Shown piece by piece: positions 3,286-30,080 of a stretch of 32,000 nt of DNA (position 1 is the first letter of the stretch; every line of letters begins with the position of its first letter). A model generated the notes under the pieces. That model worked only from the letters and a program-made list of their open reading frames with translations. It had not been told where the DNA came from and ran no database searches. The stretch comes from Geobacter metallireducens GS-15 (lineage in GTDB: Bacteria > Desulfobacterota > Desulfuromonadia > Geobacterales > Geobacteraceae), in assembly GCF_000012925.1 (NCBI RefSeq), contig NC_007517.1:2430001-2462000 (forward strand). Reading direction: 5' to 3'. Position numbers and translations under genes: made by a program.

Positions 3286-3522
3286 CTCTATCTCCTTCTC
3301 TGTCCGAGGCGAAAACGCGCTCGACGAGGGAGGGAGGGGCTCCGTCACTCTTCCCGGCTCCGATTCGGCGGATACTGGCGGCTTGTTCTTGAGATTGTCC
3401 GTTTCCAATGGCGACCTCGCATACTCGCTACACCGGCTAATAAGTATACCGGATTGAGGCCCTTTGTCTCGCAGCGGTTCGGGCCAATGGCGTCCCGACC
3501 ACAATATACTGCTGCAATTTCC

Positions 3523-4894
3523 GGCTCTTTAGCAGAATCTGTGGTGACACAGGGGTTCTGGCAAGTCGCCAAGTGTGTGATATAGCGCCACTTGCAGGCA
3601 CTTGATGGTTCGGAAACCGTACGCTTTTCTGATAGTCAGTTTTGCTTTGAGGTTCAGACCCTCTACCGCGCCGCTGGAAAGTCGGCCTTTTGCCTTGAAC
3701 CAGTTGAGAATCATCGGTTTGTGGTTGCGTAACATCCTGGCAACCTTCTTCATCGGTTCCAGGTCAGTTTGCATTGTCCTGATGACCCAGTCGTCGAGGA
3801 ACTTGCCAGCAAAGTCAGACCGCTGGTAGTCCCAGAACTGCTGAAAGTCCTCGCGCAGCAGATATGCCTTGATTGATGAGAGGTTGAGCTTGAGCAAATC
3901 TCCCAATCGTGACGTCTGCTTCTCGGACAGATTTTCCGGCCGTTTCAGCAGCAACCAACGGCCCTTTTCCAGGACGTTCTCCTGCTTGGCGGCCTTGAAC
4001 TCCTTGGCTTCGGTGCGCCGAACCTCGTCAATCGCTTCGTTAAACTTCCGCATGATGTGGAAGCGGTCGAGGATGTTCACGGCATTGGGTGCCCGCTTGG
4101 CGATAACCTTGAGATACGGTGCCCACATGTCGCTGCAGACATACTTGAGCTTGGCGCTGCGTTCTTTGCCGAATTCCCGAAAGAAGCGCAGTAGCGTTCT
4201 TATCCGACGTTGCGGACCACACCAGAGAAGACGCCTGACGCCGGCATTGAGCTGATAGACCATCGTAAGATACTGATGGCCCTTGAAGACGGCAATTTCA
4301 TCAACACCGATTTCCGTAACGCCATCAAGGTTTCTGTTTGCCAGGCCGTAATCGACAGCATACTGCACCGCCCGAAAGATGCTGTCCCAACTGGTCTTAA
4401 AGATTTCGGCAACTTCCTTCCAGGAGAGTCGCCGAGCCCACCGGGCAAGATAGACCTGGTACGAGATCGTCATTTGCTCTTTGCCATACCCCCAGGGGAG
4501 GGATTCAACCTTTACCCCATGGATTGGGCACAGAACCCGACGGGGAGCGTAGCGAAAGAAGACCTTGAACGCCCAGATCGGCACATACTCGAACAGTCGG
4601 GCCGGTTGCGTGTCGTATGTCTTGCCTCGCTTGCCACATTCCGGGCATTCGGGCTTGCTGTTGCGACGAGCCTTGATGTCAATGACCAGTGCTTCTGAGC
4701 CGCCGACTTTCGCCAGTCGGCAATCTCCGTAAATGAAGGACTTGAAACGCTCGAACTTGTTCAGTACAGTCTTGATAAGCATTGCTTCTCCCGTGTCGGA
4801 CTTGATCGTTTCTCGCAAAAACAATCTTATCCTTCACGGAGGGGCAATGCCCTTATTTTTTCAGCCAACTACCCACAGATTCTGCGGACGAGGC
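3523..4894 (-). mobile_element. ISL3-family insertion sequence, apparently intact
   Basis: The imperfect terminal inverted repeats share the 13-nt core GCAGAATCTGTGG (3532-3544, and rc of 4872-4884), with GGCTC/GCCTC ends. They are flanked by the 8-bp direct repeat CAATTTCC (3515-3522 and 4895-4902). Boundaries are +/-1 nt. The element has a single transposase ORF. Confidence 0.85.
3529..4782 (-). CDS. ISL3-family transposase
   Basis: N-terminal zinc-finger pattern CPECG...CPIHG. Central VDEIAVFKGHQYLTMVYQL and DRFHIMRKFNEAIDEVRR. C-terminal SSGAVEGLNLKAKLTIRKAYGFR, typical of ISL3 transposases. ATG 4782 follows GGGAGAAG. The track start at 4824 is a TTG. The stop lies inside the terminal repeat. 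Confidence 0.9.
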   Translation of the reverse strand: MLIKTVLNKFERFKSFIYGDCRLAKVGGSEALVIDIKARRNSKPECPECGKRGKTYDTQPARLFEYVPIWAFKVFFRYAPRRVLCPIHGVKVESLPWGYGKEQMTISYQVYLARWARRLSWKEVAEIFKTSWDSIFRAVQYAVDYGLANRNLDGVTEIGVDEIAVFKGHQYLTMVYQLNAGVRRLLWCGPQRRIRTLLRFFREFGKERSAKLKYVCSDMWAPYLKVIAKRAPNAVNILDRFHIMRKFNEAIDEVRRTEAKEFKAAKQENVLEKGRWLLLKRPENLSEKQTSRLGDLLKLNLSSIKAYLLREDFQQFWDYQRSDFAGKFLDDWVIRTMQTDLEPMKKVARMLRNHKPMILNWFKAKGRLSSGAVEGLNLKAKLTIRKAYGFRTIKCLQVALYHTLGDLPEPLCHHRFC

Positions 4895-5406
4895 CAATTT
4901 CCCCCCTCCCCCCGCTCCTCTCCCCGCCGTGGGAGAGGGTGGCCGAAGGCCGGGTGAACGGTAAGGCAGGTTTGAATCAGTGCCACGCTGAGGATTAACA
5001 AACCCAAAGAGAGAATAACAAGACGATTCTACAGACGATATGTGCAGGTGTCCGTATTTTTACTAGGACATCATACGCTGAGTTTATAGGTAATTGCGAC
5101 AGCACTATTAAGGGTTTGTCTTAGTCTTTCAGACCACACCGCATCACTTCCCTCGTACTTCAGTCATCGGAAAGTTTCTGTCTAACGATAGTACTTACTG
5201 CCGCTTATTCACACACAAATACCTATAGACCATTTCCCTGATACCTATGACAAATACAGATGTCCACCGAATAGAGCGGCCGCTGTTATTTCGTATAGTT
5301 TTATCCAAAATTGGGCCGCCGGAACAGACAGTGCGCAGCCCTGCATCAAACATCTCCCGCAAAGTTAGCCTAGGCATATTGACATATTCTAAGAGGAATT
5401 CCACCT

Positions 5407-7182
5407 ATGAGACTCGTCATCCCCTGCATCACGTCATTTCTTATTACGGCCGTTCTCACCCCCTTCGTCATCCGCATCGCGACCGCCTGCAGGTGCGTGG
5501 ATGTGCCAGGCGAGCGACGCCTGCACCGGAGGCCGACTCCCCGGTGGGGAGGGGCGGCGTTTTTCGCCGGGGTGCTCCCCTTTCTGTTTGTCGAGAGCCA
5601 TGGCGGAGCATTGGCGTCGTTCATTGCCGCGTCGTTCATTCTGGTCGGCATGGGGATGGTGGATGACCTTTCCTCCCTTGACTGGAAAATGAAATTTGCC
5701 GTCATGGCGGCCGCGGCCACAATCGTCATATTCGGCGGCAACGTCACCATCAACCACATCGGGGTCTTTGGCTCACTGGGGCGGTTGGACCTGGGGATGT
5801 TAAGCATCCCCTTCACCTACATCGGCATCATTGGCATTACCAACGCCATCAACCTCCTCGACGGCCTCGACGGCCTGGCAGGCGGCGTATCGCTTCTGGG
5901 ATTCCTGTTCATGGGGATTGCGGCCCTCCTTACGGGCAACGTACCGGTAGCGGTCATCTGCTTCGCCTATGTGGGGGCGCTGGGAGCCTTTCTCCTCTTC
6001 AACTTCCCCAACGCCAGAATCTTCATGGGGGACACGGGAAGCCTCTTTCTCGGGTTCTCTCTTGCCTTCGTGGCCGTGCTCCTCACGCAGGGCGTACAAG
6101 ACTCGGTGGACTCCATGTTCCCGGTGCTCGTGCTCCTCATCCCCATCTTCGACACGCTCCGGGTCCTGCTGGTACGACTGCTGAAAAAGAAAAACCCGTT
6201 CCGGGCAGACAACCTTCATCTCCACTACCTGATGGTGCGCAGGAATATTCCCCCGGCACACGTGACGCTCCTCTTCTGGGGGGGCACGGCCCTCTTCGGC
6301 TCCATTGCGCTGCTCCTCACAAACCGGCCATCGGTCTCGTATCTTTCCGTCGTGCTGTATGCCGCGTCATTCCTGGGCCTGACCGCCGCAAGCCTGACAC
6401 CGGGAGTGGAGGCCGGCAGGGAAGCGAAACCGGTTGAAACCAGTTCCTACAATACGGCCAGACAGCCGTACAGGCCCAAGGAAGGGACGATTACCGTCAG
6501 GCTGATGTTTGTCCTTGGCGTCGTTTTCCTGGCAACCCAGGTCTTTGCCGAGGAACCGGCCGTTCTCAAGACCCAGCGGGACAAGGTCAATTACGCCATT
6601 GGCGTCAACATGGTGAGGAACTTTACGCAGCAGTCGGTCGAAATCGACCTGGATATGCTGATGCAGGGCATGAGGGACGCCCGTTCAGGCGGCAAGCTTC
6701 TCATGACTGAGGAAGAGATCCGCAGAACCACCCTTGCCGTTCAGGAAGAGGTGCGGAAGAGACAGAAGATGGCCCCCATAATAGCGGCCAAGGAGGGGCA
6801 GGCATTCCTGGCTGAAAACAAAACGAAAGAGGGAGTGGTAACCCTGCCGAGCGGCCTCCAGTACAAGATACTGAAGGCAGGTAACGGCAGGACCCCCACG
6901 GATGTTGACCATGTTCTCTGCGACTACCGCGGGACCCTTCTGAACGGAGCTGAATTCGACCGCTCCTATCCCGGCCGTCCGGTGACGTTCAGTGTCGCCG
7001 AAGGAGGAGGAATCCCCGGCCTGAGCGAAGCTTTGAAAATGATGCCGGTGAACTCAAAGTGGCAACTTTTCATTCCCTCCCAACTGGCCTACGGAGAGCG
7101 GGGGCGGACAAGTCTCATCGGATCGCCGGTCGGGCCCAATGAGACGATCATCGTGGAGGTTGAGCTCCTCGCGATCAAGTGA
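5407..7182 (+). CDS. in-frame fusion: WecA/MraY-family polyprenyl-phosphate sugar-1-phosphate transferase (N) plus FkpA/Mip-like FKBP peptidyl-prolyl isomerase (C)
   Basis: 591-aa ORF with no internal stop. AGAGGA lies upstream of ATG 5407. The N-terminal ~330 aa is polytopic with GT4-family motifs (NAINLLDGLDGLAGG, FMGDTGSLFLGFSL). A linker follows, then the signal-peptide-like MFVLGVVFLATQVFAEE (from 6505). After that come an FKBP_N-like helix region and an FKBP_C domain (LPSGLQYKILKAGNGRTP...DYRGTLLNGAEFDRSY...LFIPSQLAYGERG). Confidence 0.8.
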   Translation: MRLVIPCITSFLITAVLTPFVIRIATACRCVDVPGERRLHRRPTPRWGGAAFFAGVLPFLFVESHGGALASFIAASFILVGMGMVDDLSSLDWKMKFAVMAAAATIVIFGGNVTINHIGVFGSLGRLDLGMLSIPFTYIGIIGITNAINLLDGLDGLAGGVSLLGFLFMGIAALLTGNVPVAVICFAYVGALGAFLLFNFPNARIFMGDTGSLFLGFSLAFVAVLLTQGVQDSVDSMFPVLVLLIPIFDTLRVLLVRLLKKKNPFRADNLHLHYLMVRRNIPPAHVTLLFWGGTALFGSIALLLTNRPSVSYLSVVLYAASFLGLTAASLTPGVEAGREAKPVETSSYNTARQPYRPKEGTITVRLMFVLGVVFLATQVFAEEPAVLKTQRDKVNYAIGVNMVRNFTQQSVEIDLDMLMQGMRDARSGGKLLMTEEEIRRTTLAVQEEVRKRQKMAPIIAAKEGQAFLAENKTKEGVVTLPSGLQYKILKAGNGRTPTDVDHVLCDYRGTLLNGAEFDRSYPGRPVTFSVAEGGGIPGLSEALKMMPVNSKWQLFIPSQLAYGERGRTSLIGSPVGPNETIIVEVELLAIK

Positions 7183-7234
7183 GCACTGAACGAGCATTGT
7201 GCAGAGTACACAGGGCGGAAAGGAGGTAAGAATC

Positions 7235-7471
7235 ATGAGAAAGCTGCCGGCATTAGCATCCGCGATTATCCTCTCGGGTTTGATGGCTGCATCGCTGCAC
7301 GCGGCACAGAATCCCGGTTCCGGGAATCCGCAGAAACAACAGGCACAAGTCAAGCGAAACAGTGCCCCTGCCCCGAAGAAGGCCGTTTTATCCAAACGCA
7401 ATCGGGCCAAGATCGAGGTGGAAGAGATGAAAAAGATCAAGCAGCAGTTGCAGAAGGACGGCACGAACTAA
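7235..7471 (+). CDS. small secreted basic protein (78 aa), unknown function
   Basis: GGAAAGGAGG lies upstream of ATG 7235. Signal peptide MRKLPALASAIILSGLMAASLHA|AQ. The mature part is K/Q/R-rich (KRNRAKIEVEEMKKIKQQLQK). It sits between the FKBP fusion and the oxidase with short gaps. Confidence 0.6.
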   Translation: MRKLPALASAIILSGLMAASLHAAQNPGSGNPQKQQAQVKRNSAPAPKKAVLSKRNRAKIEVEEMKKIKQQLQKDGTN

Positions 7472-7499
7472 GAACTTGAGCGATTTTGGAGGAGGACCT

Positions 7500-10400
7500 A
7501 TGAACAGGCAACAGCTTTCAATCATTATGAGCCTGGTGCTTGCACTGGCGGCACTTCCCCTGGCTGCCTACGCTGGTCCGGGGACAAGGGCGACGCCGCC
7601 GGCACCTGACTACCCTGCGTCCGCAACGCCCAGCGGAGGCACGTTCTACGCCAACAGCCCGGCAGGCCCCTGGAAATACACTAACATCATGGGCACCTAC
7701 AGTAGCGCTTCCAGCAATTCCGGAACCCCTCTCAGGAAGTTTGTCGACTCGCTGCCGGGGCTCGGGTCCGGCGCACGGCCTGCCGGTACAGCCCTGGGCG
7801 CCAACAACCTCGGGCAGTACATCCCAATCGCAGCTCCCGACACGGCCACGTACCCCGGCTCGGATTACTACCAGATCGGTCTGAAAGACTACCGGGTACA
7901 GATGCACTCGGACCTCCCCCCCACCGCGGATGCGTTGGGAACCGGCACTAAGCTGAGGGGGTATTACCAGAAAAACGGTACGGACCACTCGTCCAACTAC
8001 CTGGGACCTCTGATCATTGCCCAGAAGGACCGGCCGGTGCGCATCAAGTTCTTTAACGAACTGGGCGCTAACGGCGCGGGCGACCTCTTCATACCGGTGG
8101 ACACCACGTACATGGGTGCGGGGATGGGCCCCAACGGGATGGATAACTACACACAGAACCGGGCCGATCTTCATCTCCATGGCGGACACTCTCCGTGGAT
8201 CAGTGACGGGACCCCACACCAGTGGATCACCCCGGCCGGGGAGACGAGCACCCCCTATACCTCTGGTGCAAGTTTGAGAAACGTTCCCGACATGGATGGC
8301 GGGATCGAGCCGGCCGGCGCCTCCACCTATTTCTGGACCAACAACCAGAGCGGCAGGATGTTGTTCTACCACGACCATTCCTACGGGATAACGCGCCTCA
8401 ACGTCTATGCCGGCGAGGCGGCAGGCTACCTCATAGTCGATCCCGCGGAAGAGACCTCGCTGGCCGCCGCCGGCGTCCCCGGCACCATCCGTAATCCAGC
8501 CAATCTGGGGGATACGGCAAATAACGACCTGGCACACATTATCCCCCTGATCATCCAGGACAAGACTTTCGTTCCCCAGGACATTGCCGTTCAGGATACG
8601 AAATGGAACGATCCCAAATGGGGCAAGTACGGCGACCTGTGGTTCCCGCACGTCTACGAAACGAACCAGTGGCCCACCAACCCGGACCTGAGTGGTGCGA
8701 ACAACTTCGGCCGGTGGGACTACGGCCCCTGGTTCTGGCCGATCTTCCCCGCTGCCGTTCCGGGACTGCCCACAATGAACGTGTCCGGCGTGCCTGAAGG
8801 GTTCATGGATACGCCCGTTGTCAACGGTACGGCCTACCCGTATATGGACGTACAGCCCCAGGCCTACCGGTTGCGGATCCTGAACGCGGCCAACGACCGG
8901 ATGTTCAACCTCTCCTTCTTTACGGCCGACCCGACCCTTACCCCCTTTGACCCGGTGACCGGCCAGCCGAACCCCGGTTATCAAAAGGAAGTCAAAATGG
9001 TTCCGGCAGTTCCGCGGCCGGTCTGCAGTGCGACCGTCACCACGAACTGCACCTGCGCCGGCGCCCCCGGAACACCGGTTGGCTGTTTCCCGCCGACCTG
9101 GCCCACGGATTCGAGGGCGGGCGGCGTGCCCGACCCGGCCACAGCCGGCCCGCCAATCATCCAGATAGGTTCTGAAGGCGGCCTGCTGCCGGCGCCTACC
9201 GTGATCAATCCCCAACCGGTCAACTATGAATACAATCGCAGAAACGTGGTGGTCCTGAATGTGTCGGACAAGGCGCTCTTCCTGGGGCCGGCGGAACGGG
9301 CCGATGTGATCGTCGACTTTTCCGCCTATGCCGGCAAGACCGTCATCCTTTACAACGACGGCCCCGCGCCGGTGCCGGCGTTCGACCCGCGCAACGACTA
9401 CTACACGGGCTGCCCGGATAATACCTCGTCGGGTGGCGCACCTCCGACAATGGCCGGTTACGGTCCCAACACCCGGACCATCATGCAGTTCCGGGTAGCG
9501 GCTGCTACTCCGGTACCCTTCAATCCGGCTCCGTTAACCACGGCTCTGCCGACGATCTATGCAGCGTCGCAGCCCGCGCCGGTGATTCCGCAAACCGGCT
9601 ATCCCGGCCCCTATAAAGCAACAGCCGATACCTATTCCAGAATATCAGACAACTCCCTGACCTTTACGCCGGTCGGCGCCACCGCGCCGGTAACGATGCC
9701 CATGAAGTCGAAGGCCATTCAGGAGCTTTTCACCGCGGACTATGGCCGCATGAACGCCACTCTGGGGGTCGAACTGCCGTTTACCAACGCCCTTATCCAG
9801 ACGACGATTCCCCTGGGTTACATAGACCCGACAACCGAACAGCTCAACAACGGCCAGCCCCAGCTCTGGAAGATCACCCATAACGGCGTTGACACCCATG
9901 CCATCCATTTCCACCTGTTCGACGTGCAGATCATCAACCGGGTCGGCTGGGACGGCATGATTCGGCCACCCGACGCCAACGAGTTGGGATGGAAGGATAC
10001 GGTCAGGATGCACCCGCTGGAAGACATCGTTGTCGCCATGAGACCGACGACGCCGCCTGTGCCATTCCCTCTCCCCAACAGCGTCCGGCCGCTCGACGTG
10101 ACAATGCCTCTGGGTACCACAACGCAATTTACCGGTGTTGATCCCACTACCAATACGCCGATCACCGTTACCAACGAGTTGACAAACTTTGAGCACGAGT
10201 ACGTTTGGCACTGCCATCTCCTGGGTCATGAAGAGAATGACATGATGCGGCCAGTTGTATTCGCTACCAAGCCGCCACAGGGTGACTTCAACGGCCTCGG
10301 CAAAACCGATATCGCCGTCTGGCGCCCTGGCACCACCGGCCAATGGTGGATCAAAACGTCAACTAACACGCCCGTTGTAATAAACCAGGGAATAACCGGA

Positions 10401-11105
10401 GATAAGCTCGTTCCCGGCGACTACGATGGCGACAGAAAGACCGACGTGGCCGTATGGCGCCCCTCCGACGGCAACTGGTACATTACCAACAGTGCCAACG
10501 GGACGACCAGTACCATAGGTTACGGAACCAATGGCGACATCCCCGTCCCCGGCGACTACGATGGCATCGGCAAAACCGAGACGGCAGTGTGGCGCCCCTC
10601 CAATGGTACCTGGTATATCCCCAACAGCGCCAATGGTACGCAGAGCGTCATAACGTACGGGACGAACGGCGACATCCCCGTCGCCGGCGACTACGACGGC
10701 GACGGCAAGACTGACGTTGCCGTCTGGCGTCCATCCAATGGCAGATGGTACATCAAGAACAGCGGCTCAACCACGCAAACCGTCGTCAGCTACGGCTCGA
10801 ACGGCGATACCCCCGTTCCCGGCGATTACGACGGCGACAACAAGACCGACATGGCCGTCTGGCGCAACGGCACCTGGTACATCAAGAACAGCGCCACCAA
10901 TACCCAAACTGTCGTGAATTTCGGCACCGCCGGCGACATCCCGGTCCCCGGCGACTACGAAAACCTCGGCCGGACGGAAATAGCCGTATGGCGTCCCTCC
11001 AACGGCAACTGGTACATCATGAATCCGGTGACCCACTTGCAAACCACCGTAAACTGGGGCGCCCCGACAGACTTGCCCATCAAGGTATTCCAACCGGTGA
11101 AGTAG
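7500..11105 (+). CDS. large secreted multicopper oxidase with C-terminal FG-GAP/VCBS repeat module (possibly OmpB/OmpC-like)
   Basis: GGAGGAGG lies upstream of ATG 7500; the track start at 7476 is a TTG. Sec-type signal MNRQQLSIIMSLVLALAALPLAAYA. All four MCO copper-ligand motifs are present: HLHGGH, YHDHSYG, HAIHFH, HCHLLGHEENDMM. The last ~274 aa are six tandem DxDxDG repeats. Confidence 0.9.
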   Translation: MNRQQLSIIMSLVLALAALPLAAYAGPGTRATPPAPDYPASATPSGGTFYANSPAGPWKYTNIMGTYSSASSNSGTPLRKFVDSLPGLGSGARPAGTALGANNLGQYIPIAAPDTATYPGSDYYQIGLKDYRVQMHSDLPPTADALGTGTKLRGYYQKNGTDHSSNYLGPLIIAQKDRPVRIKFFNELGANGAGDLFIPVDTTYMGAGMGPNGMDNYTQNRADLHLHGGHSPWISDGTPHQWITPAGETSTPYTSGASLRNVPDMDGGIEPAGASTYFWTNNQSGRMLFYHDHSYGITRLNVYAGEAAGYLIVDPAEETSLAAAGVPGTIRNPANLGDTANNDLAHIIPLIIQDKTFVPQDIAVQDTKWNDPKWGKYGDLWFPHVYETNQWPTNPDLSGANNFGRWDYGPWFWPIFPAAVPGLPTMNVSGVPEGFMDTPVVNGTAYPYMDVQPQAYRLRILNAANDRMFNLSFFTADPTLTPFDPVTGQPNPGYQKEVKMVPAVPRPVCSATVTTNCTCAGAPGTPVGCFPPTWPTDSRAGGVPDPATAGPPIIQIGSEGGLLPAPTVINPQPVNYEYNRRNVVVLNVSDKALFLGPAERADVIVDFSAYAGKTVILYNDGPAPVPAFDPRNDYYTGCPDNTSSGGAPPTMAGYGPNTRTIMQFRVAAATPVPFNPAPLTTALPTIYAASQPAPVIPQTGYPGPYKATADTYSRISDNSLTFTPVGATAPVTMPMKSKAIQELFTADYGRMNATLGVELPFTNALIQTTIPLGYIDPTTEQLNNGQPQLWKITHNGVDTHAIHFHLFDVQIINRVGWDGMIRPPDANELGWKDTVRMHPLEDIVVAMRPTTPPVPFPLPNSVRPLDVTMPLGTTTQFTGVDPTTNTPITVTNELTNFEHEYVWHCHLLGHEENDMMRPVVFATKPPQGDFNGLGKTDIAVWRPGTTGQWWIKTSTNTPVVINQGITGDKLVPGDYDGDRKTDVAVWRPSDGNWYITNSANGTTSTIGYGTNGDIPVPGDYDGIGKTETAVWRPSNGTWYIPNSANGTQSVITYGTNGDIPVAGDYDGDGKTDVAVWRPSNGRWYIKNSGSTTQTVVSYGSNGDTPVPGDYDGDNKTDMAVWRNGTWYIKNSATNTQTVVNFGTAGDIPVPGDYENLGRTEIAVWRPSNGNWYIMNPVTHLQTTVNWGAPTDLPIKVFQPVK
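10281..11102 (+). repeat. six tandem ~43-46-aa FG-GAP/VCBS-type repeats (coding)
   Basis: The unit GDYDGDGKTDxAVWRPSNGxWYIxNSxxGxQxxxxYGxxGDxPVP occurs six times. Repeat 5 is the short form (WRNGTWYIKNS). Repeat 6 is the terminal variant GDYENLGRTEIAVWRPSNGNWYIM. Confidence 0.9.
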
Positions 11106-11119
11106 ATGAGAAGAACCGG

Positions 11120-11147
11120 AAAGGCCGGCAGCAATGCCGGCCTTTTT
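11120..11147 (+). terminator. rho-independent terminator of oxidase operon 1
   Basis: AAAGGCCGGCA-GCAA-TGCCGGCCTTT followed by a T run, 15 nt after the stop codon. Confidence 0.85.
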
Positions 11148-11252
11148 CGCGTTAGGACAAAGTATGACGCGGGACTCATTGAGGCGAAGAAACATAAGAC
11201 AATCTCACATTCCTCAATCAGAAAGTCTCTACAAGAAAACAGACGTTCGCCG

Positions 11253-11282
11253 ATTACACGAAATGCCGCTTAAAAATATACT
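11253..11282 (+). promoter_or_regulatory. possible sigma70-type promoter for oxidase operon 2
   Basis: ATTACA (11253-11258), 18-nt spacer, TATACT (11277-11282). It lies about 100 nt upstream of the first ORF of the operon, in an AT-richer intergenic stretch. This is a motif match only. Confidence 0.25.
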
Positions 11283-11383
11283 TTGATCAACAACAAAGCA
11301 CTCCCTCAGGGAGAGGGGACTATTTAATCACCGAAGAATGAGTAGCCCGCGATTCGCGTGACCCGTTGGTTGAGGGGTTATCC

Positions 11384-11698
11384 ATGAAACTAGCTGTCGT
11401 GGCCGGAATGGTGCTACTGCCGCACGTTCTGTTTGCGGATACCGACTGCCGGGTCGATGAATACCCGGATCACTACGTGGTCGTATGCACCGGAGAAGAA
11501 AAAGCAGAACCTCCGGCGCCCCGGCCGTCGACTATAGGTCAATCCGCCACAGCAGCAACGTCCGCAACGCCGATTCAAGCCGCAATCCAGGATCACTCAA
11601 CGGATAGCATCAATGGGCCCAGGCCCGGCCGCATGTCCAGGTCGCGCCTCGAGGCCGCGATCACGGCCCGTAACAGGTTTCTGCAGGAGAATGAGTGA
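11384..11698 (+). CDS. small secreted protein (104 aa), unknown function
   Basis: ATG 11384 follows GAGGGG. Signal peptide MKLAVVAGMVLLPHVLFA|DTDC. The mature part has two Cys (DTDCRVDEYPDHYVVVCTG), an A/T/P-rich linker and a basic C-terminal helix (SRSRLEAAITARNRFLQENE). Its stop lies 35 nt before the next start. Confidence 0.6.
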   Translation: MKLAVVAGMVLLPHVLFADTDCRVDEYPDHYVVVCTGEEKAEPPAPRPSTIGQSATAATSATPIQAAIQDHSTDSINGPRPGRMSRSRLEAAITARNRFLQENE

Positions 11699-11733
11699 TC
11701 CGTCATATCCAAAAATCAAGGAGGAATCAGTAC

Positions 11734-12519
11734 ATGAGCCGGTTTTCTCATCTGAAATGGGGTGATTACTCGCTGAAATCCCCCGAATCCGTACCAGCCT
11801 TTCCCTGCCTCAGGGGCAATAGCCGCGGCAGGAGATGTATCCCCATAGGAATCTGGGGCTTGATCCTGTTGTTCTGTGCGGTATCCGCCGCCCTCGGTCA
11901 GGAGATCAAGGGAGAGAATGCAAAGCTCAACTACAGCGTGGGCTACCAGGTGGGCAGTGATTTCAAGGCCCATGGCGTGGAACTGGACCCCGACGCACTG
12001 ATGCAGGGGGTACAGGATGCCGTCAAGCAGAAAGAGCCGTCTGTGTCCAAAGAAGAGATGAACAAGTCCCTGACGGGACTCAAACGGAAGATTGATGCCG
12101 CCGGGCAGACGAGCGCCCGGCAGAAAACCGCCGAGTACCGCCGCGCCAGCGAGGCATTTCTGAAGGAGAACGCCCAAAAGGAAGGGGTCAAGATCCTGCC
12201 GAGCGGCGTCCAGTACCGGGTAATCAGCGAAGGGAGCGGCAAAATGCCAACCCTCAAGGATGAGGTAAAGGTCCACTATCGCATCTCGCGGATAGACGGC
12301 AAGGAGTTGGGCAACACCTATGACGCCGGCATTCCGAGAACCGTCTCCGTGGCAAAAGCGATGCCGGCCCTCCAGGAGGTGCTGCCGCTGATGGCCGAGG
12401 GGTCCAAGTGGCAGGTCGTCATCCCCACTGGCACCGCTTCGGGAAACAAGGAACCCCTGGATGACCAGGGAGTTTTGATCTACGACCTGGAACTGGTTTC
12501 CGTTATTCCGGCTAAATAG
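11734..12519 (+). CDS. FkpA/Mip-like periplasmic FKBP-domain protein with degenerate catalytic residues
   Basis: AAGGAGGA lies upstream of ATG 11734; the track start at 11695 is a GTG. Hydrophobic anchor/signal IPIGIWGLILLFCAVSAALG. FKBP_N-like (KLNYSVGYQVGSDF...ALMQGVQDAV) and FKBP_C-like (ILPSGVQYRVISEGSGKMP...VKVHYRISRIDGKEL...WQVVIPTGTASG) regions. Confidence 0.8.
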   Translation: MSRFSHLKWGDYSLKSPESVPAFPCLRGNSRGRRCIPIGIWGLILLFCAVSAALGQEIKGENAKLNYSVGYQVGSDFKAHGVELDPDALMQGVQDAVKQKEPSVSKEEMNKSLTGLKRKIDAAGQTSARQKTAEYRRASEAFLKENAQKEGVKILPSGVQYRVISEGSGKMPTLKDEVKVHYRISRIDGKELGNTYDAGIPRTVSVAKAMPALQEVLPLMAEGSKWQVVIPTGTASGNKEPLDDQGVLIYDLELVSVIPAK

Positions 12520-12670
12520 GCGACCTTCAACGTCTCTATAAAAACCTAGGGAAAGGTGGTGATCGGAAAGACGGCAGGGATTGCTGCAGACATCGCTGAA
12601 CCATCTCCGGAGCGACACACGTCGGGATGGCACCCAAAGGGCATGAGGCCCTGAACTCGAGGAGGCAACA

Positions 12671-15600
12671 ATGAATGATCACCCACCATGGAAAACCGGA
12701 ACCAGGCTGCTCTCCGCCCTCACCTTCCTGGGCCTGAGCATCACGTCAACCGCCCACGCGGTGCCTGTACCGGGGGGGACCGTCGACCCCGCCAGCATCC
12801 CCAAGTACGTGACCCCTCTGGTCATCCCCCCGGTGATGCCCGCAAGTGTCTCGTCACCGGCCCCGGCGGCCAAATATGACATCGCTGTCCGCCAGTTCAA
12901 ACAGCAGATCCTTCCCGGCGGCATCTGGGGGAGCAGCTTCCCCAACCCGCTCGCTGCTGCGCCGGCAACGGTCGGCCCATTCCCTGCCACAACCGTGTGG
13001 AGTTACGGCCGGGCATCGGACCCGCAGCCGGATTCAACGGCGATCGTGGGGGGAGGCGTAGGGATCGCGCCGGCCACGAACTCGAGCTTCAACTATCCGG
13101 CCTTCACCGTGGAAAACACCTCGAACGTGGCTACCTCGGTGCGCTGGAGCAACGATCTGGTCGCCGATCCGGTTGCCTGCGCGGCATCTCCCAACAAGAG
13201 CGTCGCCGCGTGTAATTTCCTGCCTCACCTCTTCAGCGTGGACCAGACCATCCACTGGGCCAACCCGACCGGCACGGGCTGCGTCATGGCCATGAACCCC
13301 CTCGGGGTCGATTGCCACACGGCCAATGCAGCTCCCTACATCGGTCCGGTCCCACTGGTGACCCACGTCCACGGCGCCCATGTCATGCCCCATAGCGACG
13401 GCTATCCCGAAGCGTGGTGGCTCCCCGGCACCCCCGGCACCAAGGGGATTCCAGCCAGCTATGTGGAGCGCGGCACGAAATACGACCAGGCCAACACCGC
13501 CAACGCCATCGCCGGCACGGCCTACTTCAACTACCTCAACACCCAGCCGGCCACAACGATCTGGTATCATGACCATACCATCGGCATGACCCGGCTTAAC
13601 GTCTATGCAGGCCCGGCCGGTTTCTGGCTCATCAGGGGGGGCGTGAACGATCTGGCAGCCGGCAGCCTTCCCGGCCCGGCACCGACCGTCGGGCAAGACC
13701 CGAACCTAACCCCCGCGACCCGCAACGCCATCCGCGAGGTGCCGATTGTCATCCAGGACCGTTCGTTCGATTGGGCCGATGCCGCCGGCAACACGCTCCC
13801 CACGTCGACGGGGGCCACCCAGGCCAAGCTGTTCTACCCGTCCAGCCGCCTCTTCTTCGACGGCTTCACCGGACCGTACATCGGTGGAGTCGGCACCCCT
13901 GCCGGTCCTTCGGACATCTCCCCCATACTCAACCCCGAAGTGTTCTTCAACACCATGGTGGTCAACGGCACAACCTGGCCGAAATTCACCGTGGCGCCGA
14001 CCAAATACCGCTTCCGCTTCCTGGACGGCTGCAACTCCCGGACCCTCAACCTCTCGATGTATGTGGTAACCGCCGGCCCCGACGGCAAATGGGGCACGGC
14101 CGACGACGTGAAGACCACTACGGAAATCCCCTTCTACCAGATCGGCGGCGATCAGGGGTTCCTTCCCAAGGTCGTCAAGATCACCAAGGGCTTCGCTACC
14201 GCCCTTCCCGGGAACGGGACCATCCCGGCAGCCGTGGCCGCTCCCTCCACCGAACAGGGTTTGTTGATGGGTCCGGCTGAACGTGCCGACGTGATCATCG
14301 ACTTCACCGGTCTGGCCAACGGTACCCATGTCCGGATTTTCAACACGGGTCCCGACGCCCCCTTCCAGGGGTTCCCGGCCAACCTGGCACTCTATGCGCC
14401 GGCCGATCCGCTCACCTCCGGACAGGTGATGGATTTCATCGTCGACTCCGTTGCCGTTCCCGTGCTCCCGAGCGACGCAACCACAACGACGGTGCAGAAC
14501 CTCGTCCTCCCCAGCGAGGCACCCCTCGGCGCACCGGTGCCCACTCCCCGCAAGGTTTCCCTGAACGAGCTGGACTCCGCCCAGGTCTGCGTCGAAGTCA
14601 ATCCGGTCACCGCGGCAATCGTCCGGACGATTTTCAGCACCTTCGCCGGGGATCCGAACTTTGCGGCCAACTGCGCGAAGGCGGCGGTCCTCACACCGGG
14701 TGATGTGCCGTTGCCGGCAGGCCCCCGCATAACGCTCCTCGGCACGCTGTCCGCCGACGGGCTTACGGCGGTCCCGTTGAACTGGAATGATCCGCTCACC
14801 GAACTGCCGCTTCTCAGCAGCACCGAAACCTGGGAAATCTACAACACCACCATGGATGGACATCCTGTCCACGTACACCTGGTGCGGTTCGAGCTGGTCA
14901 ACCGGCAAAAACTCCTCGCCGCCACCCTGACGCCGGACCCCGCGGCCGGCAGCACGACTCTCCCGCAACCCAACGAACAGGGCTTTAAAGACACCATCAT
15001 CGCGCTGCCCGGACAGGTTACCCGGATAAAGGCAAAGTTCGACATCGAGGGGCTCTATGTATGGCACTGCCATATCGTCGAGCATGAAGACAACGAGATG
15101 ATGCGCCCCTATGTGGTGCACAAGGCGCGGCTCAACGCCGATTTCGACGGCGACGGCAAGACCGACCTGGTGGTCTGGCGCCCCAACACGGGTGACTGGC
15201 TGCACATGCCATCATTCACCAACATGACCCGCACGGTCAACTTCGGCACCACCGGCGATAAGCTGGTCCCCGGCGATTACGACGGCGACGGCAGGGTCGA
15301 CATGGCTGTCTGGCGCCCCTCCAACGGCCACTGGTACTTCATGAACAGCATCACCGGCGCCCAGAGCACCGTCAGCTACGGGACCATGGGCGATACCCCC
15401 GTCCCCGGCGACTATGACGGCGACGGCAAGACCGACATGGCCGTCTGGCGCGGCGGCAGCTGGTTCATCAAGAATAGCGCCACCGGCACCCAGAGCACCC
15501 CCAGCTACGGGACCACCGGCGACATCCCCGTTCCCGGCGACTACGACGGCGACGGCAAGACCGACCTGGCTGTCTGGCGCCCCACCAACGGGACCTGGTA

Positions 15601-15955
15601 CATCACGAACAGCGCCACCGGCACGCAAACCACCGCGGCTTACGGGACCACCGGCGACGTTGTCGTCCCCGGCGACTATGACGGCGACGGCAAGACCGAC
15701 ATCGCCGTCTGGCGCAACGGCACCTGGTTCATCAAGAACAGCGGCAACGGCACCCAGAGCGTCATCAGTTACGGGACCGCCGGCGATATCCCCGTACCGG
15801 GCGACTACGACAGCATCGGCAGGACCAGCATCGCTGTCTGGCGTCCTTCCAACGGAACCTGGTATATCATGGACACCGTCACCGGCAAGCAACGGACGGT
15901 GAGTTGGGGCCTGTCCACCGATCAGCCCGTCCAGGCAAACCAGCCAGTGAAGTAA
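12671..15955 (+). CDS. large secreted multicopper oxidase with C-terminal FG-GAP/VCBS repeat module
   Basis: GAGGAGG lies upstream of ATG 12671. Sec-type signal ...LLSALTFLGLSITSTAHA|VP. Copper motifs HVHGAH, YHDHTIG, HPVHVH, HCHIVEHEDNEMM. The last ~272 aa are six tandem DxDxDG repeats. Confidence 0.9.
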   Translation: MNDHPPWKTGTRLLSALTFLGLSITSTAHAVPVPGGTVDPASIPKYVTPLVIPPVMPASVSSPAPAAKYDIAVRQFKQQILPGGIWGSSFPNPLAAAPATVGPFPATTVWSYGRASDPQPDSTAIVGGGVGIAPATNSSFNYPAFTVENTSNVATSVRWSNDLVADPVACAASPNKSVAACNFLPHLFSVDQTIHWANPTGTGCVMAMNPLGVDCHTANAAPYIGPVPLVTHVHGAHVMPHSDGYPEAWWLPGTPGTKGIPASYVERGTKYDQANTANAIAGTAYFNYLNTQPATTIWYHDHTIGMTRLNVYAGPAGFWLIRGGVNDLAAGSLPGPAPTVGQDPNLTPATRNAIREVPIVIQDRSFDWADAAGNTLPTSTGATQAKLFYPSSRLFFDGFTGPYIGGVGTPAGPSDISPILNPEVFFNTMVVNGTTWPKFTVAPTKYRFRFLDGCNSRTLNLSMYVVTAGPDGKWGTADDVKTTTEIPFYQIGGDQGFLPKVVKITKGFATALPGNGTIPAAVAAPSTEQGLLMGPAERADVIIDFTGLANGTHVRIFNTGPDAPFQGFPANLALYAPADPLTSGQVMDFIVDSVAVPVLPSDATTTTVQNLVLPSEAPLGAPVPTPRKVSLNELDSAQVCVEVNPVTAAIVRTIFSTFAGDPNFAANCAKAAVLTPGDVPLPAGPRITLLGTLSADGLTAVPLNWNDPLTELPLLSSTETWEIYNTTMDGHPVHVHLVRFELVNRQKLLAATLTPDPAAGSTTLPQPNEQGFKDTIIALPGQVTRIKAKFDIEGLYVWHCHIVEHEDNEMMRPYVVHKARLNADFDGDGKTDLVVWRPNTGDWLHMPSFTNMTRTVNFGTTGDKLVPGDYDGDGRVDMAVWRPSNGHWYFMNSITGAQSTVSYGTMGDTPVPGDYDGDGKTDMAVWRGGSWFIKNSATGTQSTPSYGTTGDIPVPGDYDGDGKTDLAVWRPTNGTWYITNSATGTQTTAAYGTTGDVVVPGDYDGDGKTDIAVWRNGTWFIKNSGNGTQSVISYGTAGDIPVPGDYDSIGRTSIAVWRPSNGTWYIMDTVTGKQRTVSWGLSTDQPVQANQPVK
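15137..15952 (+). repeat. six tandem FG-GAP/VCBS-type repeats (coding)
   Basis: Same unit as 10281-11102. Repeats 3 and 5 are the short form (WRGGSWFIKNS, WRNGTWFIKNS). Repeat 6 is the terminal variant GDYDSIGRTSIAVWRPSNGTWYIM. Confidence 0.9.
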
Positions 15956-15982
15956 ACGAGAAGTTCCAGCAGCAGCACAACG

Positions 15983-16014
15983 GAAAGGCCGGCAGAAGTG
16001 CCGGCCTTTCTTTT
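15983..16014 (+). terminator. rho-independent terminator of oxidase operon 2, U-tract interrupted by an IS
   Basis: GAAAGGCCGGCA-GAAG-TGCCGGCCTTTC then TTTT. The IS left end starts at 16015. Confidence 0.8.
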
Positions 16015-17340
16015 GGTTCTTCAGGGAATTCCGGGGAAGATTAATAAACAACAACGGCAGCACTGCGGTATCTTGATGGTTCCCCAACCAAAAAAGATCG
16101 CAGGAGGCTGCCGTTGTCGTATTCCGATGTTATCGCAATTGCGGGAGGGTGGGAAGGATATCGTGTTGCTGGGACACGCACTATCGTCACAGGTGATGCC
16201 AAACGGATCGAGGTAGAACTGATTGCCCTGTCCCAGGATGAGATGGTGTGTGGCTCGTGCGGCGGGCGTTGCACAAGCGTCCATGAAACGACCAAGCGCG
16301 TAATTCGAGATTTGCCGATTCTCGATGCTCAGACTTATCTGATCGTTCACCGCCGCAGGCTGCTGTGCCCTCAGTGTGGGCCAACGCTGGAGCGTCTGTC
16401 ATGGCTGGCGAAATACGCCCGCGTGACGCGCAGGCTTGCAGAGAGCGTAGCGCGACTGTGTGGTGTCGTGTCTGTGAAGCACGTGGCGCAGTATCTGGGG
16501 CTTTCTTGGGACCAGGTGAAGGAAATCGACAAGCGCTCACTCACAGAGCGGGTCGGCACCGTCGACCTCTCAAACATCGAAGTTCTCGGGATGGATGAGT
16601 TCGCCCTTCACAAGGGGCACCGCTATGCGACGGTTATCATCGAGCCATACCGTAAGGAAGTCTTATGGATCGGCAAAGGCAGGAGTCGCGAGAGTATCCG
16701 TCCTTTCTTCACGCAGCTTGGCCCACATGGCTGTAAACGGCTCAAAGCGGTCGTGATGGATATGAACGCATCATATGAGGAGGAAATCAAGCAGCACTCG
16801 CCCCAGGCAGACATAGTCTACGACCTGTTCCATGTGGTGGCGAAGTATGGCAGGGAAGTGATCGACAGGGTGCGAGTCGATGAGGCAAACCGCCTGAAGG
16901 AAGACAAGAAGGCACGGAAGGTAGTCAAAACATCGCGGTGGTTGCTGCTACGAAACAGCGAGAACGTCAAGGGCGACGACATGCTTCGCCTCCAGGAACT
17001 GTTGGAGGCAAACCGCAGCCTCCTTACGGTCTACCTGCTCAAAGACGATCTGAAGCAACTGTGGAAGTTTACCTGCATTGAAGAGGCGGGACTATTCTGG
17101 GAGCAGTGGCACCAAAGGGCGATGGAGAGTGGAATACCGCCACTCATCCTGTTTGCCCGCCGGCTAAAGGGCTATCTCCAAGGAATCCTCAACCACTGCC
17201 TCTGGCCCCTTCACACCGGAATCCTCGAAGGCATCAATAACAAGATCAAGGTGATCAAAAGAATGGCCTACGGCTTCCGGGATCACGAATACTTCTTTCT
17301 CAAGATCAGAGCCGCTTTCCCCGGAATTCCCGGATGAACC
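16015..17340 (+). mobile_element. ISL3-family insertion sequence (a different member from the one at 3523), apparently intact
   Basis: Terminal inverted repeats GGTTCTTCAGGGAATTCCGGGGAA (16015-16038) and rc of 17317-17340 GGTTCATCCGGGAATTCCGGGGAA match at 22/24 by hand count. They are flanked by the perfect 8-bp direct repeat TTTCTTTT (16007-16014 and 17341-17348). Confidence 0.9.
16114..17337 (+). CDS. ISL3-family transposase
   Basis: GGAGG lies 6 nt upstream of the TTG start at 16114. Zinc-finger pattern CGSCGG...CPQCG. Central MDEFALHKGHRYATVII and DLFHVVAKYGREVIDRVR. C-terminal HTGILEGINNKIKVIKRMAYGFRDHEYFFLKI. The stop lies inside the right terminal repeat. Confidence 0.9.
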   Translation: MSYSDVIAIAGGWEGYRVAGTRTIVTGDAKRIEVELIALSQDEMVCGSCGGRCTSVHETTKRVIRDLPILDAQTYLIVHRRRLLCPQCGPTLERLSWLAKYARVTRRLAESVARLCGVVSVKHVAQYLGLSWDQVKEIDKRSLTERVGTVDLSNIEVLGMDEFALHKGHRYATVIIEPYRKEVLWIGKGRSRESIRPFFTQLGPHGCKRLKAVVMDMNASYEEEIKQHSPQADIVYDLFHVVAKYGREVIDRVRVDEANRLKEDKKARKVVKTSRWLLLRNSENVKGDDMLRLQELLEANRSLLTVYLLKDDLKQLWKFTCIEEAGLFWEQWHQRAMESGIPPLILFARRLKGYLQGILNHCLWPLHTGILEGINNKIKVIKRMAYGFRDHEYFFLKIRAAFPGIPG

Positions 17341-17377
17341 TTTCTTTTTGCCCCATCTTCCACCGCCGGTTCCCGGG

Positions 17378-17521
17378 AGGGGCGGAGCTCTTGCGGAGAA
17401 GCGATCCCCGCAAAAAACCACCTTCGGTATTGGCGGAGGGAAAGCCTCGGAAACAGCTGTTCACGTGCCACGAAGACCGGCTGGTGACGCTGGATCGCTT
17501 CGGAGCAAGAGCTCCGCCCCT
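17378..17521. repeat. long imperfect inverted repeat (30-nt arms, 84-nt spacer); function unknown
   Basis: Left arm AGGGGCGGAGCTCTTGCGGAGAAGCGATCC (17378-17407) pairs with right arm GGATCGCTTCGGAGCAAGAGCTCCGCCCCT (17492-17521). That is 17 bp, a 3x3 internal mismatch (GGA/GGA), then 10 bp. Confidence 0.8.
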
Positions 17522-17619
17522 GCCCGCCACAATGTGAAATCAGTATTAAAAATATTTTTTTTGACTTTATTCCCCCCACTAAGGCACAAATAGATAACAA
17601 ATTCACAACAGACTCGATA

Positions 17620-17696
17620 CACGACAATACTCAACCATCCGCGAGGATGGGGCGGAAAGCCTACAGGGTCTCCAGCAGACAGCCGGGTTGCCGAAA
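17620..17696 (+). ncRNA. candidate GEMM-I class (c-di-GMP-I / cGAMP) riboswitch aptamer
   Basis: CAACC, then a perfect hairpin CCAUCC-GCGA-GGAUGG (17635-17650), then GGCGGAAAGCC, then an imperfect hairpin CU(A)C(A)GGGUCU-CCAGC-AGAC(AG)CCGGG, then UUGCCGA. Block order and sequence parallel the V. cholerae Vc2 aptamer as I remember it (GCAAACC-AUUC-GAAA-GAGU-GGGACGCAAAGCC...GGGGUUACCGA). No covariance-model search was possible. Confidence 0.6.
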
Positions 17697-17728
17697 TATC
17701 ACTCGATGATAGCGGTCCCGGCTTTTTT
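17681..17728 (+). terminator. intrinsic terminator acting as riboswitch expression platform
   Basis: AGCCGGG (17681-17687) pairs with CCCGGCT (17717-17723), extended by inner stems CCG/CGG and TATCA/TGATA, then a T run (17723-17728). The 5' arm overlaps the 3' strand of the proposed aptamer helix. It lies about 125 nt upstream of the start codon at 17853. Confidence 0.65.
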
Positions 17729-17852
17729 GTGCGCAAAAATCCGGGCAACAACCAGCACAGGGGAGGAATTATTTCAAAAGATGTCACAACGAGGAGAGCA
17801 GTTGTTTTCGGACGAAGAAACGTATCTTCCAAGGAATGGAAAAGGAGTCTGC

Positions 17853-20637: not shown

Positions 20638-20642
20638 GGCTG

Positions 20643-24713: not shown

Positions 24714-24743
24714 TGGTTCAATGCCCTCTGCCGCCGCGCTCCC

Positions 24744-26924: not shown

Positions 26925-26948
26925 CGGAAACTCCTTAGCTGCTGGCGC

Positions 26949-29064: not shown

Positions 29065-29109
29065 TGGCAACCCGTTGGCAATGCCTGCCAGCCCACTGTC
29101 ATAATGAAA

Positions 29110-30075: not shown

Positions 30076-30080
30076 GGCAC

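Follow-up and report, generated by a model that had tools for sequence, protein, structure and literature searches.

Two genes for multicopper oxidases of more than 1000 amino acids (aa) lie close together in a 32,000-nucleotide stretch of the Geobacter metallireducens GS-15 chromosome (NC_007517.1, positions 2,430,001 to 2,462,000; hereafter the window, to which all positions below refer), and each of them is preceded by a gene coding for a protein with FKBP domains. Why should giant secreted copper oxidases be accompanied by proteins of this kind? An earlier note on this DNA, made from the sequence alone, read the FKBPs as dedicated periplasmic folding or copper-loading helpers of oxidases exported unfolded, and pointed to mofB, at the mofA manganese-oxidase locus of Leptothrix discophora, and to the large surface protein OmpB. 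Both links held: He et al. (2017, PMC5566968) describe OmpB as a homologue of MofA, and in the account given by their paper, the L. discophora operon mofA-mofB-mofC codes, next to the oxidase, for the peptidylprolyl isomerase MofB, proposed by Brouwers et al. (2000) to fold and activate MofA, and for a cytochrome c (mofC), with mofABC-like clusters present in several Fe(II) oxidisers. The folding-helper reading is essentially an existing published hypothesis, which is still a proposal. Our own answer, to which we give a probability of roughly 55%, is of the same nature: the window would contain a cluster of the mofA/mofB (OmpB/MofA) kind which serves the maturation of surface oxidases and in which dedicated periplasmic FKBPs escort giant secreted copper oxidases. 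That a MofA-like oxidase might have an FKBP as its helper was suggested over 20 years ago, and our results refine this idea and do not overturn it. What is new here is a membrane-tethered fusion of an FKBP to a Glycos_transf_4 (GT4) enzyme, a conserved, probable pseudo-isomerase paralogue, a small Cys protein family, an apparent propeller anchor shared by three proteins and a di-haem partner presumably controlled by a riboswitch.

Organization of the Two Modules

The proteins of the window were compared with the G. metallireducens records, the second oxidase being identical to ABB32394.1 and the 591-aa product of the first open reading frame (ORF) to ABB32390.1. The locus tags Gmet_2159 to Gmet_2163 and Gmet_2165 were taken from the supplement of PMC10989804, and Gmet_2164 was attributed to the second FKBP gene by position. 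All genes of the two modules are on the + strand. Module 1 (5407-11105) is composed of Gmet_2161, the GT4-FKBP fusion (5407..7182, 591 aa), small1 (Gmet_2162, annotated as a "secreted protein", 7235..7471, 78 aa, with the ribosome-binding site GGAAAGGAGG ahead of its ATG) and the oxidase MCO1 (Gmet_2163, published as "ompB", 7500..11105, 1201 aa, ribosome-binding site GGAGGAGG). Module 2 (11384-15955) is composed of small2 (11384..11698, 104 aa, start read from the DNA), FKBP2 (Gmet_2164, 11734..12519, 261 aa) and the oxidase MCO2 (Gmet_2165, 12671..15955, 1094 aa); the ORFs of FKBP2 and MCO1 had been listed as 11695-12519 and 7476-11105 before their likely starts were read from the DNA. Successive genes are separated by 52 and 28 nt in module 1 and by 35 and 151 nt in module 2, a terminator being present only after each oxidase. 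The distance from the FKBP_N+FKBP_C region to the oxidase gene downstream of it is 0.3 kb for MCO1 and 151 nt for MCO2.

The two sets that the earlier note had seen were borne out, with Pfam recognizing the FKBP and oxidase domains: each combines an FKBP_N+FKBP_C region with a small ORF that has a signal peptide and with a multicopper oxidase of more than 1000 aa. Each set also has, as stated there, its own terminator after the oxidase, a G+C-rich hairpin followed by a T-run, and these are copies of one sequence (hairpin 1, GAAAGGCCGGCAGCAATGCCGGCCTTTTT, 11119..11152, repeat family D5 and inverted repeat I3; hairpin 2, 15982..16016, with a 13-bp stem, repeat family D5; both on the + strand). 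Other parts of that description need correction: the architecture of the sets is not equal, the order being FKBP-small ORF-oxidase in module 1 and small ORF-FKBP-oxidase in module 2; the first FKBP gene does not code for a plain FKBP, since 5407-7182 is a single ORF including a complete Glycos_transf_4 enzyme which had been overlooked; and the cluster does not end at 15955, as a third gene (17853-19457) has the same C-terminal FG-GAP module and the same terminator (third copy, 19471..19502, +).

A recent tandem duplication can be ruled out: identity is 31-34% between the oxidase cores and 34% between the FKBPs, and each oxidase paralogue has closer orthologues in other genera. Judged from these identities, the oxidase and FKBP paralogues go back to an ancient divergence and the locus consists of two juxtaposed modules. 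The whole two-module cluster is syntenic in Geobacter sp. H2geo and in Geobacter hydrogenophilus (L093 in our survey), where the order is unbroken: a kinase and regulators and then, divergently, GT4-FKBP, small1, MCO1, small2, FKBP2, MCO2 and a di-haem protein of 534 aa. An 11.1 kb contig from strain RCH3 spans positions 4892-16017 of the window. Transcriptomes showed that Gmet_2161 and Gmet_2162 were up-regulated together (4.3-fold and 6.0-fold, respectively), and in co-culture transcriptomes Gmet_2163 and Gmet_2165 were likewise differentially expressed (PMC10989804).

Conservation of the FKBP-Oxidase Pairing

The earlier note had suggested surveying the gene neighbourhoods of related oxidases. 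Our survey, based on an oxidase-core profile search, covered 80 loci with MCO2 relatives (one genome per species, 1.43 Mb in all), in which FKBP genes were located by tblastn with both FKBPs of the window. The FKBP partner proved to be conserved in 15 of these 80 loci, which contain 26 FKBP genes, nearly all on the strand of the oxidase and with the nearest one usually at most 320 bp away. Bacterial genomes contain about one FkpA-type gene per few megabases, so that less than one FKBP gene is expected by chance in 1.43 Mb. The FKBP gene lies upstream of the oxidase in Desulfuromonadota, Nitrospirota and Acidobacteriota and downstream of it, as in mofA-mofB, in Gammaproteobacteria and Desulfobacterales, and several loci present two FKBPs or two oxidase-FKBP pairs. 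Further contexts with OmpB-type oxidases include an FKBP gene in 7 cases out of 11 (L082, L084, L085, L090, L091, L092 and L093). The GT4-fused FKBP precedes the OmpB-type oxidase in G. hydrogenophilus, Geobacter sp. H2geo, Geotalea uraniireducens and Oryzomonas sagensis as well as in one metagenome, and a standalone FKBP precedes it in three more metagenomic contigs (L090-L092). Gene neighbourhoods thus present the FKBP-oxidase pairing as frequent, non-random and non-obligatory. Copper-chaperone-type genes were also observed beside FKBP-oxidase modules elsewhere and are not present in the window: Oryzomonas and one metagenome have NosL and AhpC/redoxin-like genes, and a different metagenome has SCO1/SenC (L084, 20308-21456; L085, 250-1285 and 4904-5374; L091, 11625-12260).

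The FKBP Partners and the Small Secreted Proteins

Both FKBPs align with the whole of Mip (1FD9; E 6.6e-48 for the FKBP part of Gmet_2161, called FKBP1, and 2.2e-35 for FKBP2) and of FkpA (1Q6U), and both share with these proteins an N-terminal domain for dimerisation, a long helix and, at the C-terminus, the FKBP domain. In Gmet_2161, the FKBP_N+FKBP_C region (aa 392-588) follows a match to Glycos_transf_4 (PF00953, PNPT) which extends from aa 1 to about 335 (E 2.9e-41) and corresponds to a polyprenyl-phosphate N-acetylhexosamine-1-phosphate transferase of the WecA/MraY type, and the motifs DD, NxxNxxDGxDG, FMGDxGS and HxH are all present when this part is aligned to MraY structures. Hydropathy gives 11 transmembrane helices in the GT4 part and a twelfth helix at aa 362-384, either an additional transmembrane helix or a signal-anchor, and predicts that the catalytic GT4 loops are cytoplasmic and the FKBP domains periplasmic; Gmet_2161 is also listed with 12 transmembrane helices in the supplement of PMC10989804. 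The WecA equivalog model gave 150 bits on the GT4 part, below its cutoff of 326 bits. Because there is a possible signal-peptidase site (QVFA/EE) after the twelfth helix and an internal ATG at 6505, a free FKBP may possibly be made as well. The architecture PF00953+PF01346+PF00254 is conserved across Geobacteraceae and present in at least 22 protein clusters from Geobacter, Geotalea, Oryzomonas and metagenomes, down to 44% identity, and this conservation rules out the loss of a stop codon in one strain. GT4-FKBP is followed by one or more small ORFs and an OmpB-type oxidase in 5/5 contexts (the window, L002, L082, L084 and L085), with the same pattern in L093. Our literature search found no description of a GT4-FKBP fusion, which is an unreported variant of the known FKBP-oxidase pairing with an unusual domain architecture.

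The FKBPs differ in their active sites. In Mip numbering, FKBP1 keeps Y131, F141, D142, F153 and Y185 and has W162L as its only pocket change; in FKBP2, which Pfam recognizes as FKBP_N (1.2e-23) and FKBP_C (6e-8), only Y131 is kept and the others are replaced (F141L, D142G, F153V, W162 to L, Y185S). Wintermeyer and colleagues are said to have found in 1995 that mutations of D142 and Y185 in Mip abolish most of the isomerase activity. The FKBPs that precede MCO2-type genes in L002, L003 and L005, which are orthologues of FKBP2, are degenerate in the same way, and the canonical pocket residues are found in the GT4-fused orthologues and in most other oxidase-linked FKBPs. From its residues, FKBP2 is probably a chaperone-only pseudo-isomerase, conserved as such in its orthologues. 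The protein begins with a hydrophobic signal sequence whose n-region (within 11734-11900) is unusually long and carries SRGRRC ahead of the hydrophobic core. Among its orthologues, only that of G. hydrogenophilus retains the RR, the remaining ones having short Sec signals.

The small ORFs had been taken as counterparts of each other, and no similarity between them can be detected. Small1 consists of a signal peptide and a basic low-complexity tail; its homologues are confined to L002 (57%) and G. hydrogenophilus (79 aa), and it gave no family match in Pfam and family-model scans; a kinship with the basic small ORFs of Oryzomonas and L085 was rejected, the match having only E = 0.013 and lying on low-complexity sequence. 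Small2 is composed of a signal peptide, a conserved TDCRVxEYPDHYxxVC hairpin, a low-complexity linker and a C-terminal helix, and its homologues adjoin the FKBP and oxidase genes in L002, L082, L084, L085 and L093. C22, E26, Y27, D29, H30, Y31 and C35 are invariant among them (core T-x-C-x3-E-Y-x-D-H-Y-x3-C), and on this conservation we take small2 to be a real conserved gene and a member of a new small Cys protein family. An AlphaFold2 (AF2) model built from the single sequence, of low confidence (predicted local distance difference test, pLDDT, of 64.6), shows the hairpin with C22 facing C35 and the C-terminal helix, an arrangement which a disulfide staple would fit as well as a metal site, so that the metallochaperone role considered for the small ORFs in the earlier note is no more than possible.

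The Oxidases, Their Export and Their Propeller

Cu-oxidase and FG-GAP domains were found by Pfam in both oxidase ORFs, the nearest solved structures are the CotA-type laccases (7z5p and 1gsk; E 1e-43 to 7e-48), and the Cu ligands HxH, HxH, HxxHxH and HCHxxxHxxxxM are invariant in an alignment of 15 sequences including MCO1 and MCO2. Both oxidases begin with a Sec-type signal peptide, continue with a CotA-like core, which in MCO1 has three domains and large inserts, and end in an FG-GAP propeller, of six repeats in MCO1 and six-bladed in MCO2. The oxidases contain 9.4-11.5% proline (10.6% in MCO1). UniProt names MCO2 as a member of the "manganese oxidase family", and Gmet_2163 (MCO1) has been called an OmpB homologue (PMC10989804). 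Relatives of MCO1 often end in fibronectin type III (fn3) domains, and more generally the homologous oxidases of other species have fn3, dockerin, Big or other C-terminal modules in place of the propeller. The poly-C run at 7915-7922 inside MCO1 is one C longer than in strain RCH3 (AGJM01000064.1), where the difference is a frameshift which splits MCO1 into calls of 151 and 1056 aa: this is either a draft sequencing error or a slippage-prone tract able to switch the ompB homologue off. In gammaproteobacterial loci (L011, L015, L044 and L056), MCO2 relatives with downstream FKBP genes adjoin genes for CusA-like RND efflux, and the oxidase gene is often present in tandem copies. This gives a hint that in those organisms the subfamily may be involved in copper handling and not in Fe/Mn redox.

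As reported before, the N-termini of the oxidases (MNRQQLSIIMSLVLALAALPLAAYA/GPG and MNDHPPWKTGTRLLSALTFLGLSITSTAHA/VPV) have no consecutive arginines, and by our reading neither contains the twin-arginine translocation (Tat) motif S/T-R-R-x-F-L-K of the CueO type. Among MCO2 relatives, an FKBP neighbour was found for 13 of the 31 oxidases with Sec-type signals versus 1 of the 32 with Tat-type signals (Fisher p = 2e-4), a difference confounded with phylogeny and with the type of cell envelope: the closest relatives of MCO2 have Sec-type signals and often an FKBP neighbour, and distant CotA-like oxidases from Actinobacteria, Chloroflexi and others have obvious TRRxFLK-like Tat motifs and no FKBP neighbour. 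An RR-x-hydrophobic n-region is present in 19 of 116 MCO1 homologues, for example MNRRHLLIIM (76% identity) and MDRRRFLTLMGLAG, and G. metallireducens MCO1 reads MNRQQLSIIM where some homologues have RR. Read from the N-termini, such regions would either be ordinary Sec signals or mean that the FKBP is needed whatever the export route. Type II secretion systems take folded periplasmic substrates. OmpB requires the Pul/OxpG type II system for its secretion (PMC3543383), and its exit by such a system makes a folding step in the periplasm plausible.

An array of 135-nt FG-GAP repeats, followed by the terminator, is present three times in the window, its third copy closing the ORF 17688-19457. The module it codes for is made of six repeats of 43-45 aa with DYDGDGKTD, a loop of the Ca-binding DxDxDG type (Pfam FG-GAP and FG-GAP_3). 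The C-terminal 280 aa of MCO2 are 65% identical to the MCO1 region and 62% to that of the di-haem protein, and outside the propeller the proteins are 31% identical or unrelated. An AF2 model built on an alignment is all-beta with six repeats (pLDDT 94.5, predicted template modelling score 0.89); its structural neighbours are beta-propellers and the top ones, with a template modelling (TM) score of 0.62, are designed six-bladed propellers and PVL, the N-acetylglucosamine (GlcNAc)-binding FG-GAP lectin of Psathyrella velutina. The propeller looks like an exchangeable anchoring module which co-localises three proteins in G. metallireducens. The third of them ("cyt3", 17853..19457, +, 534 aa, with its probable start at 17853) has a signal peptide, the haem motifs CAGCH and CNGCH, an Ig-like region and the propeller, and gave no match to cytochrome or Peripla_BP families; in G. 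hydrogenophilus its gene immediately follows that of MCO2, and both CxxCH motifs are kept there. A cyclic di-GMP (c-di-GMP)-I riboswitch aptamer was found just ahead of the gene at 17619..17695 on the + strand (Rfam RF01051, 41 bits for a gathering score of 35, E 7e-5), which suggests that this surface di-haem protein is under c-di-GMP control. Upstream of modules 1 and 2, no riboswitch or other known RNA was found.

A Possible Maturation Route and Its Alternatives

In the route that we infer for G. metallireducens, starting from domain content, conserved pairing, active-site states, topology and propeller fold, a giant oxidase with about 10% proline would enter the periplasm unfolded, through its Sec-type signal peptide. 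There it would be captured by its own dimeric Mip/FkpA-like FKBP, which would interact with it as a chaperone, keeping it soluble and aiding its folding until the four copper sites form. The folded oxidase would then leave through a type II secretion system, as OmpB does in G. sulfurreducens, and its C-terminal six-bladed FG-GAP propeller, of the Ca-binding type, would hold it at the cell surface. In module 1, fusion to a WecA-like enzyme with intact catalytic motifs would hold an FKBP with a largely intact active site at the inner membrane, on its outer face; in module 2, FKBP2, deprived of the catalytic Asp and Tyr, would most likely be only a holdase. The Cys protein of the small2 family may be a further dedicated accessory factor.

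Several observations weigh against this proposal. In G. pickeringii, Anaeromyxobacter oryzae and two metagenomic contigs, the OmpB-type genes have no FKBP gene around them, and the ompB cluster of G. sulfurreducens is reported to be without mofB and to have instead a MofC-like gene and SCO1 (PMC5566968). FKBP genes lie directly upstream of RR-bearing MCO1 homologues in the three cases examined out of three (MNRRHMLIL, MHRRLLLF and MNRRQLFF, in L090-L092) and one clear Tat-type oxidase has an FKBP neighbour (L043), so that folding after Sec export need not be the whole story. The contrast between Sec and Tat follows phylogeny, the Tat-type oxidases being mostly from Actinobacteria and Chloroflexi. 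The earlier claim that the oxidases need FKBPs because they are exported unfolded is therefore supported by the split between signal types and weakened both by this confounding and by the FKBPs found next to RR-bearing or Tat-type oxidases. A folding catalyst, which the same note had seen in each FKBP, is unlikely in module 2, where the isomerase residues are lost (D142G, Y185S). Finally, a pure chaperone model does not account for an FKBP being fused to a glycosyl transferase that appears to be active. It is because the pairing is patchy, the Sec logic not clean and the link between FKBP and oxidase a proposed one that our confidence is only about 0.55.

The glycosyl transferase deserves its own explanation. 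A polysaccharide-biosynthesis cluster converges on the modules from the - strand (19450..31118; by Pfam GT1/DUF1972, methyltransferases, GT1, an AsnB-type amidotransferase, a beta-helix protein, GT2, a Wzy_C-like protein and GT2), and such clusters together with the GT4 fusion led us to consider a glycan-coupled system, which we hold to be possible but unlikely. The fusion would tie the lipid-linked priming of N-acetylhexosamine (HexNAc) to the oxidase, the oxidase being glycosylated, or else the oxidases and the di-haem protein being tethered like lectins to a surface polysaccharide, and the FKBP would work at that membrane site. The persistence of the fusion in its many clusters, without an intervening stop and with GT4 motifs intact, agrees with this scenario, as does its constant position ahead of the small ORFs and OmpB-type oxidases; besides the GT4 domain at 5407, no priming transferase was found among the ten ORFs scanned in the polysaccharide cluster, and similar clusters flank OmpB-type oxidases in L082, L085, L087, L088 and L090. 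The GlcNAc-binding lectin PVL being the best-fitting FG-GAP structure and the strong identity of the propeller among proteins otherwise so different also argue for it, but fold matches of this kind are generic to propellers and surface-protein and polysaccharide genes are often neighbours without any mechanistic link. Moreover, the literature search gave no sign of glycosylated OmpB-type proteins, and in L090-L092, as in module 2, a standalone FKBP takes the place of the fusion, which makes the GT4 part dispensable for the pairing. A more ambitious form of this scenario, which we find decidedly doubtful, is that an active WecA-like transferase-FkpA/Mip fusion marks a new coupling of surface-glycan synthesis to the maturation of OmpB-type oxidases, the oxidases and the di-haem protein being glycosylated or anchored by their propellers to a HexNAc matrix polysaccharide. 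If true, it would describe a redox-active surface layer, tethered to polysaccharide and controlled by a two-component system and c-di-GMP. To our knowledge, the anchoring of redox proteins by exopolysaccharide is known in G. sulfurreducens only for cytochromes, and the GT4-FkpA fusion may link exopolysaccharide synthesis to such anchoring.

Instead of being folding helpers, the Mip-like proteins could also be structural or secretion partners, associated with the envelope like Legionella Mip, which dock the oxidase or aid its passage through the outer membrane. Full-length Mip is the best match of both FKBPs, the FKBP2 orthologues keep the domain while losing the isomerase residues, which suggests a binding role, and FKBP neighbours persist beside oxidases with RR or Tat-like signals. 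A similarity to the BamJ family (FKBP-type, outer-membrane assembly) points in the same direction, but its scores of 67 and 49 bits are under the cutoff of 100; as the 12 helices of FKBP1 keep it in the inner membrane and neither FKBP has a lipobox or a beta-barrel element, we judge such a role quite improbable. As for an adjacency without dedicated function, with general FkpA-type chaperones standing by chance beside oxidases and the small ORFs being spurious, it would account for the OmpB-type loci without the pairing and for the confinement of small1 to very close relatives. We give it hardly any credit: the same adjacency is seen again in Desulfuromonadota, Nitrospirota, Gammaproteobacteria, Desulfobacterales and Acidobacteriota, where a locus often holds two FKBPs or two pairs, the Cys, His and Tyr of small2 are invariant across genera, and the divergence of the FKBPs specific to each module is kept in orthologues. 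Dedicated FKBP escorts are the reading that we retain. They would make of the two FKBP partners, the small Cys protein and the shared propeller anchor candidates for oxidase maturation and surface retention, and FKBP2, as a putative natural pseudo-isomerase, would separate chaperone from isomerase function.

Regulators, Insertion Sequences and Other Neighbours

Upstream of module 1, the - strand codes for an AraC-type response regulator (648-1400), a NarL/GerE response regulator (1425-2060) and a HisKA_3 histidine kinase (Gmet_2159, 2029-3504), all identified by Pfam. The HisKA_3 kinase and GerE regulator pair is also found, divergent and upstream of GT4-FKBP, in L084, L085 and L093, and from this conserved position it is likely a dedicated regulator of the oxidase operon. 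An insertion sequence (IS) of the ISL3 family (3472..4922, -, with the transposase ORF 3529-4824, Gmet_2160; DDE_Tnp_ISL3 E 1.5e-78; ends placed by synteny with L093) occupies the divergent promoter region between the kinase and GT4-FKBP genes, and a second, different ISL3-family IS (16011..17544, +, transposase ORF 16114-17337 by Pfam, ends placed by synteny with G. hydrogenophilus) separates MCO2 from the di-haem gene. Both are missing from G. hydrogenophilus and Geobacter sp. H2geo, where the cluster is intact, and by this comparison both would be insertions specific to G. metallireducens. A composite transposon with the cluster as cargo was rejected: there is no DNA repeat between the two elements and relatives have the cluster without them. 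The RCH3 draft contig ends at both ISL3 sites, which is consistent with a multicopy IS.

Inside the polysaccharide cluster, 24744-26924 (-) codes for a secreted right-handed beta-helix protein of 726 aa (Beta_helix, NosD-like), possibly a polysaccharide-modifying or -degrading enzyme. Just beyond the regulators, the G. hydrogenophilus locus codes for two more multicopper oxidases, of 513 and 726 aa, as well as for an MtrC-like cytochrome with multiple haems (L093, 815-6356); the wider region may be a redox-protein island, the matching part of G. metallireducens lying outside the window.

Comparison with Known Systems

MofA, MofB, MofC, OmpB and OmpC were compared with the window by description and annotation only. 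Like mofA-mofB-mofC, the window associates a very large secreted multicopper oxidase with an adjacent gene for an FKBP-type isomerase and has a c-type-cytochrome-like gene in the cluster. It differs from mofABC in having two tandem modules, with one FKBP fused to GT4 and the other catalytically degenerate, and in the position of the FKBP gene, which is upstream and not downstream of the oxidase. No MofC homologue was found in the window, whose only protein with haem motifs is that of 17853-19457, and this di-haem FG-GAP protein, unlike MofC, has no periplasmic-binding domain.

Geobacter sulfurreducens has two outer-surface multicopper proteins, OmpB (GSU1394) and OmpC (GSU2657). MCO1 resembles OmpB, of which it is annotated as a homologue: its relatives often end in fn3 as OmpB does, and it is probably also secreted by a type II system, but its own C-terminus is an FG-GAP propeller and not fn3. 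The window also differs from the ompB cluster of G. sulfurreducens by having no gene for the copper chaperone SCO1. Like L. pneumophila Mip and E. coli FkpA, both FKBPs of the window have the full-length architecture and are predicted to be periplasmic; unlike them, FKBP1 is the C-terminal domain of a fusion with 12 transmembrane helices and carries W162L, and FKBP2 is probably an inactive isomerase. Finally, MCO1 and MCO2 conserve all the Cu ligands of B. subtilis CotA and E. coli CueO, but they are twice the size of these enzymes, with large inserts between the cupredoxin domains, a C-terminal propeller and FKBP partners, and their signals are of the Sec type and not, as in CueO, of the Tat type.

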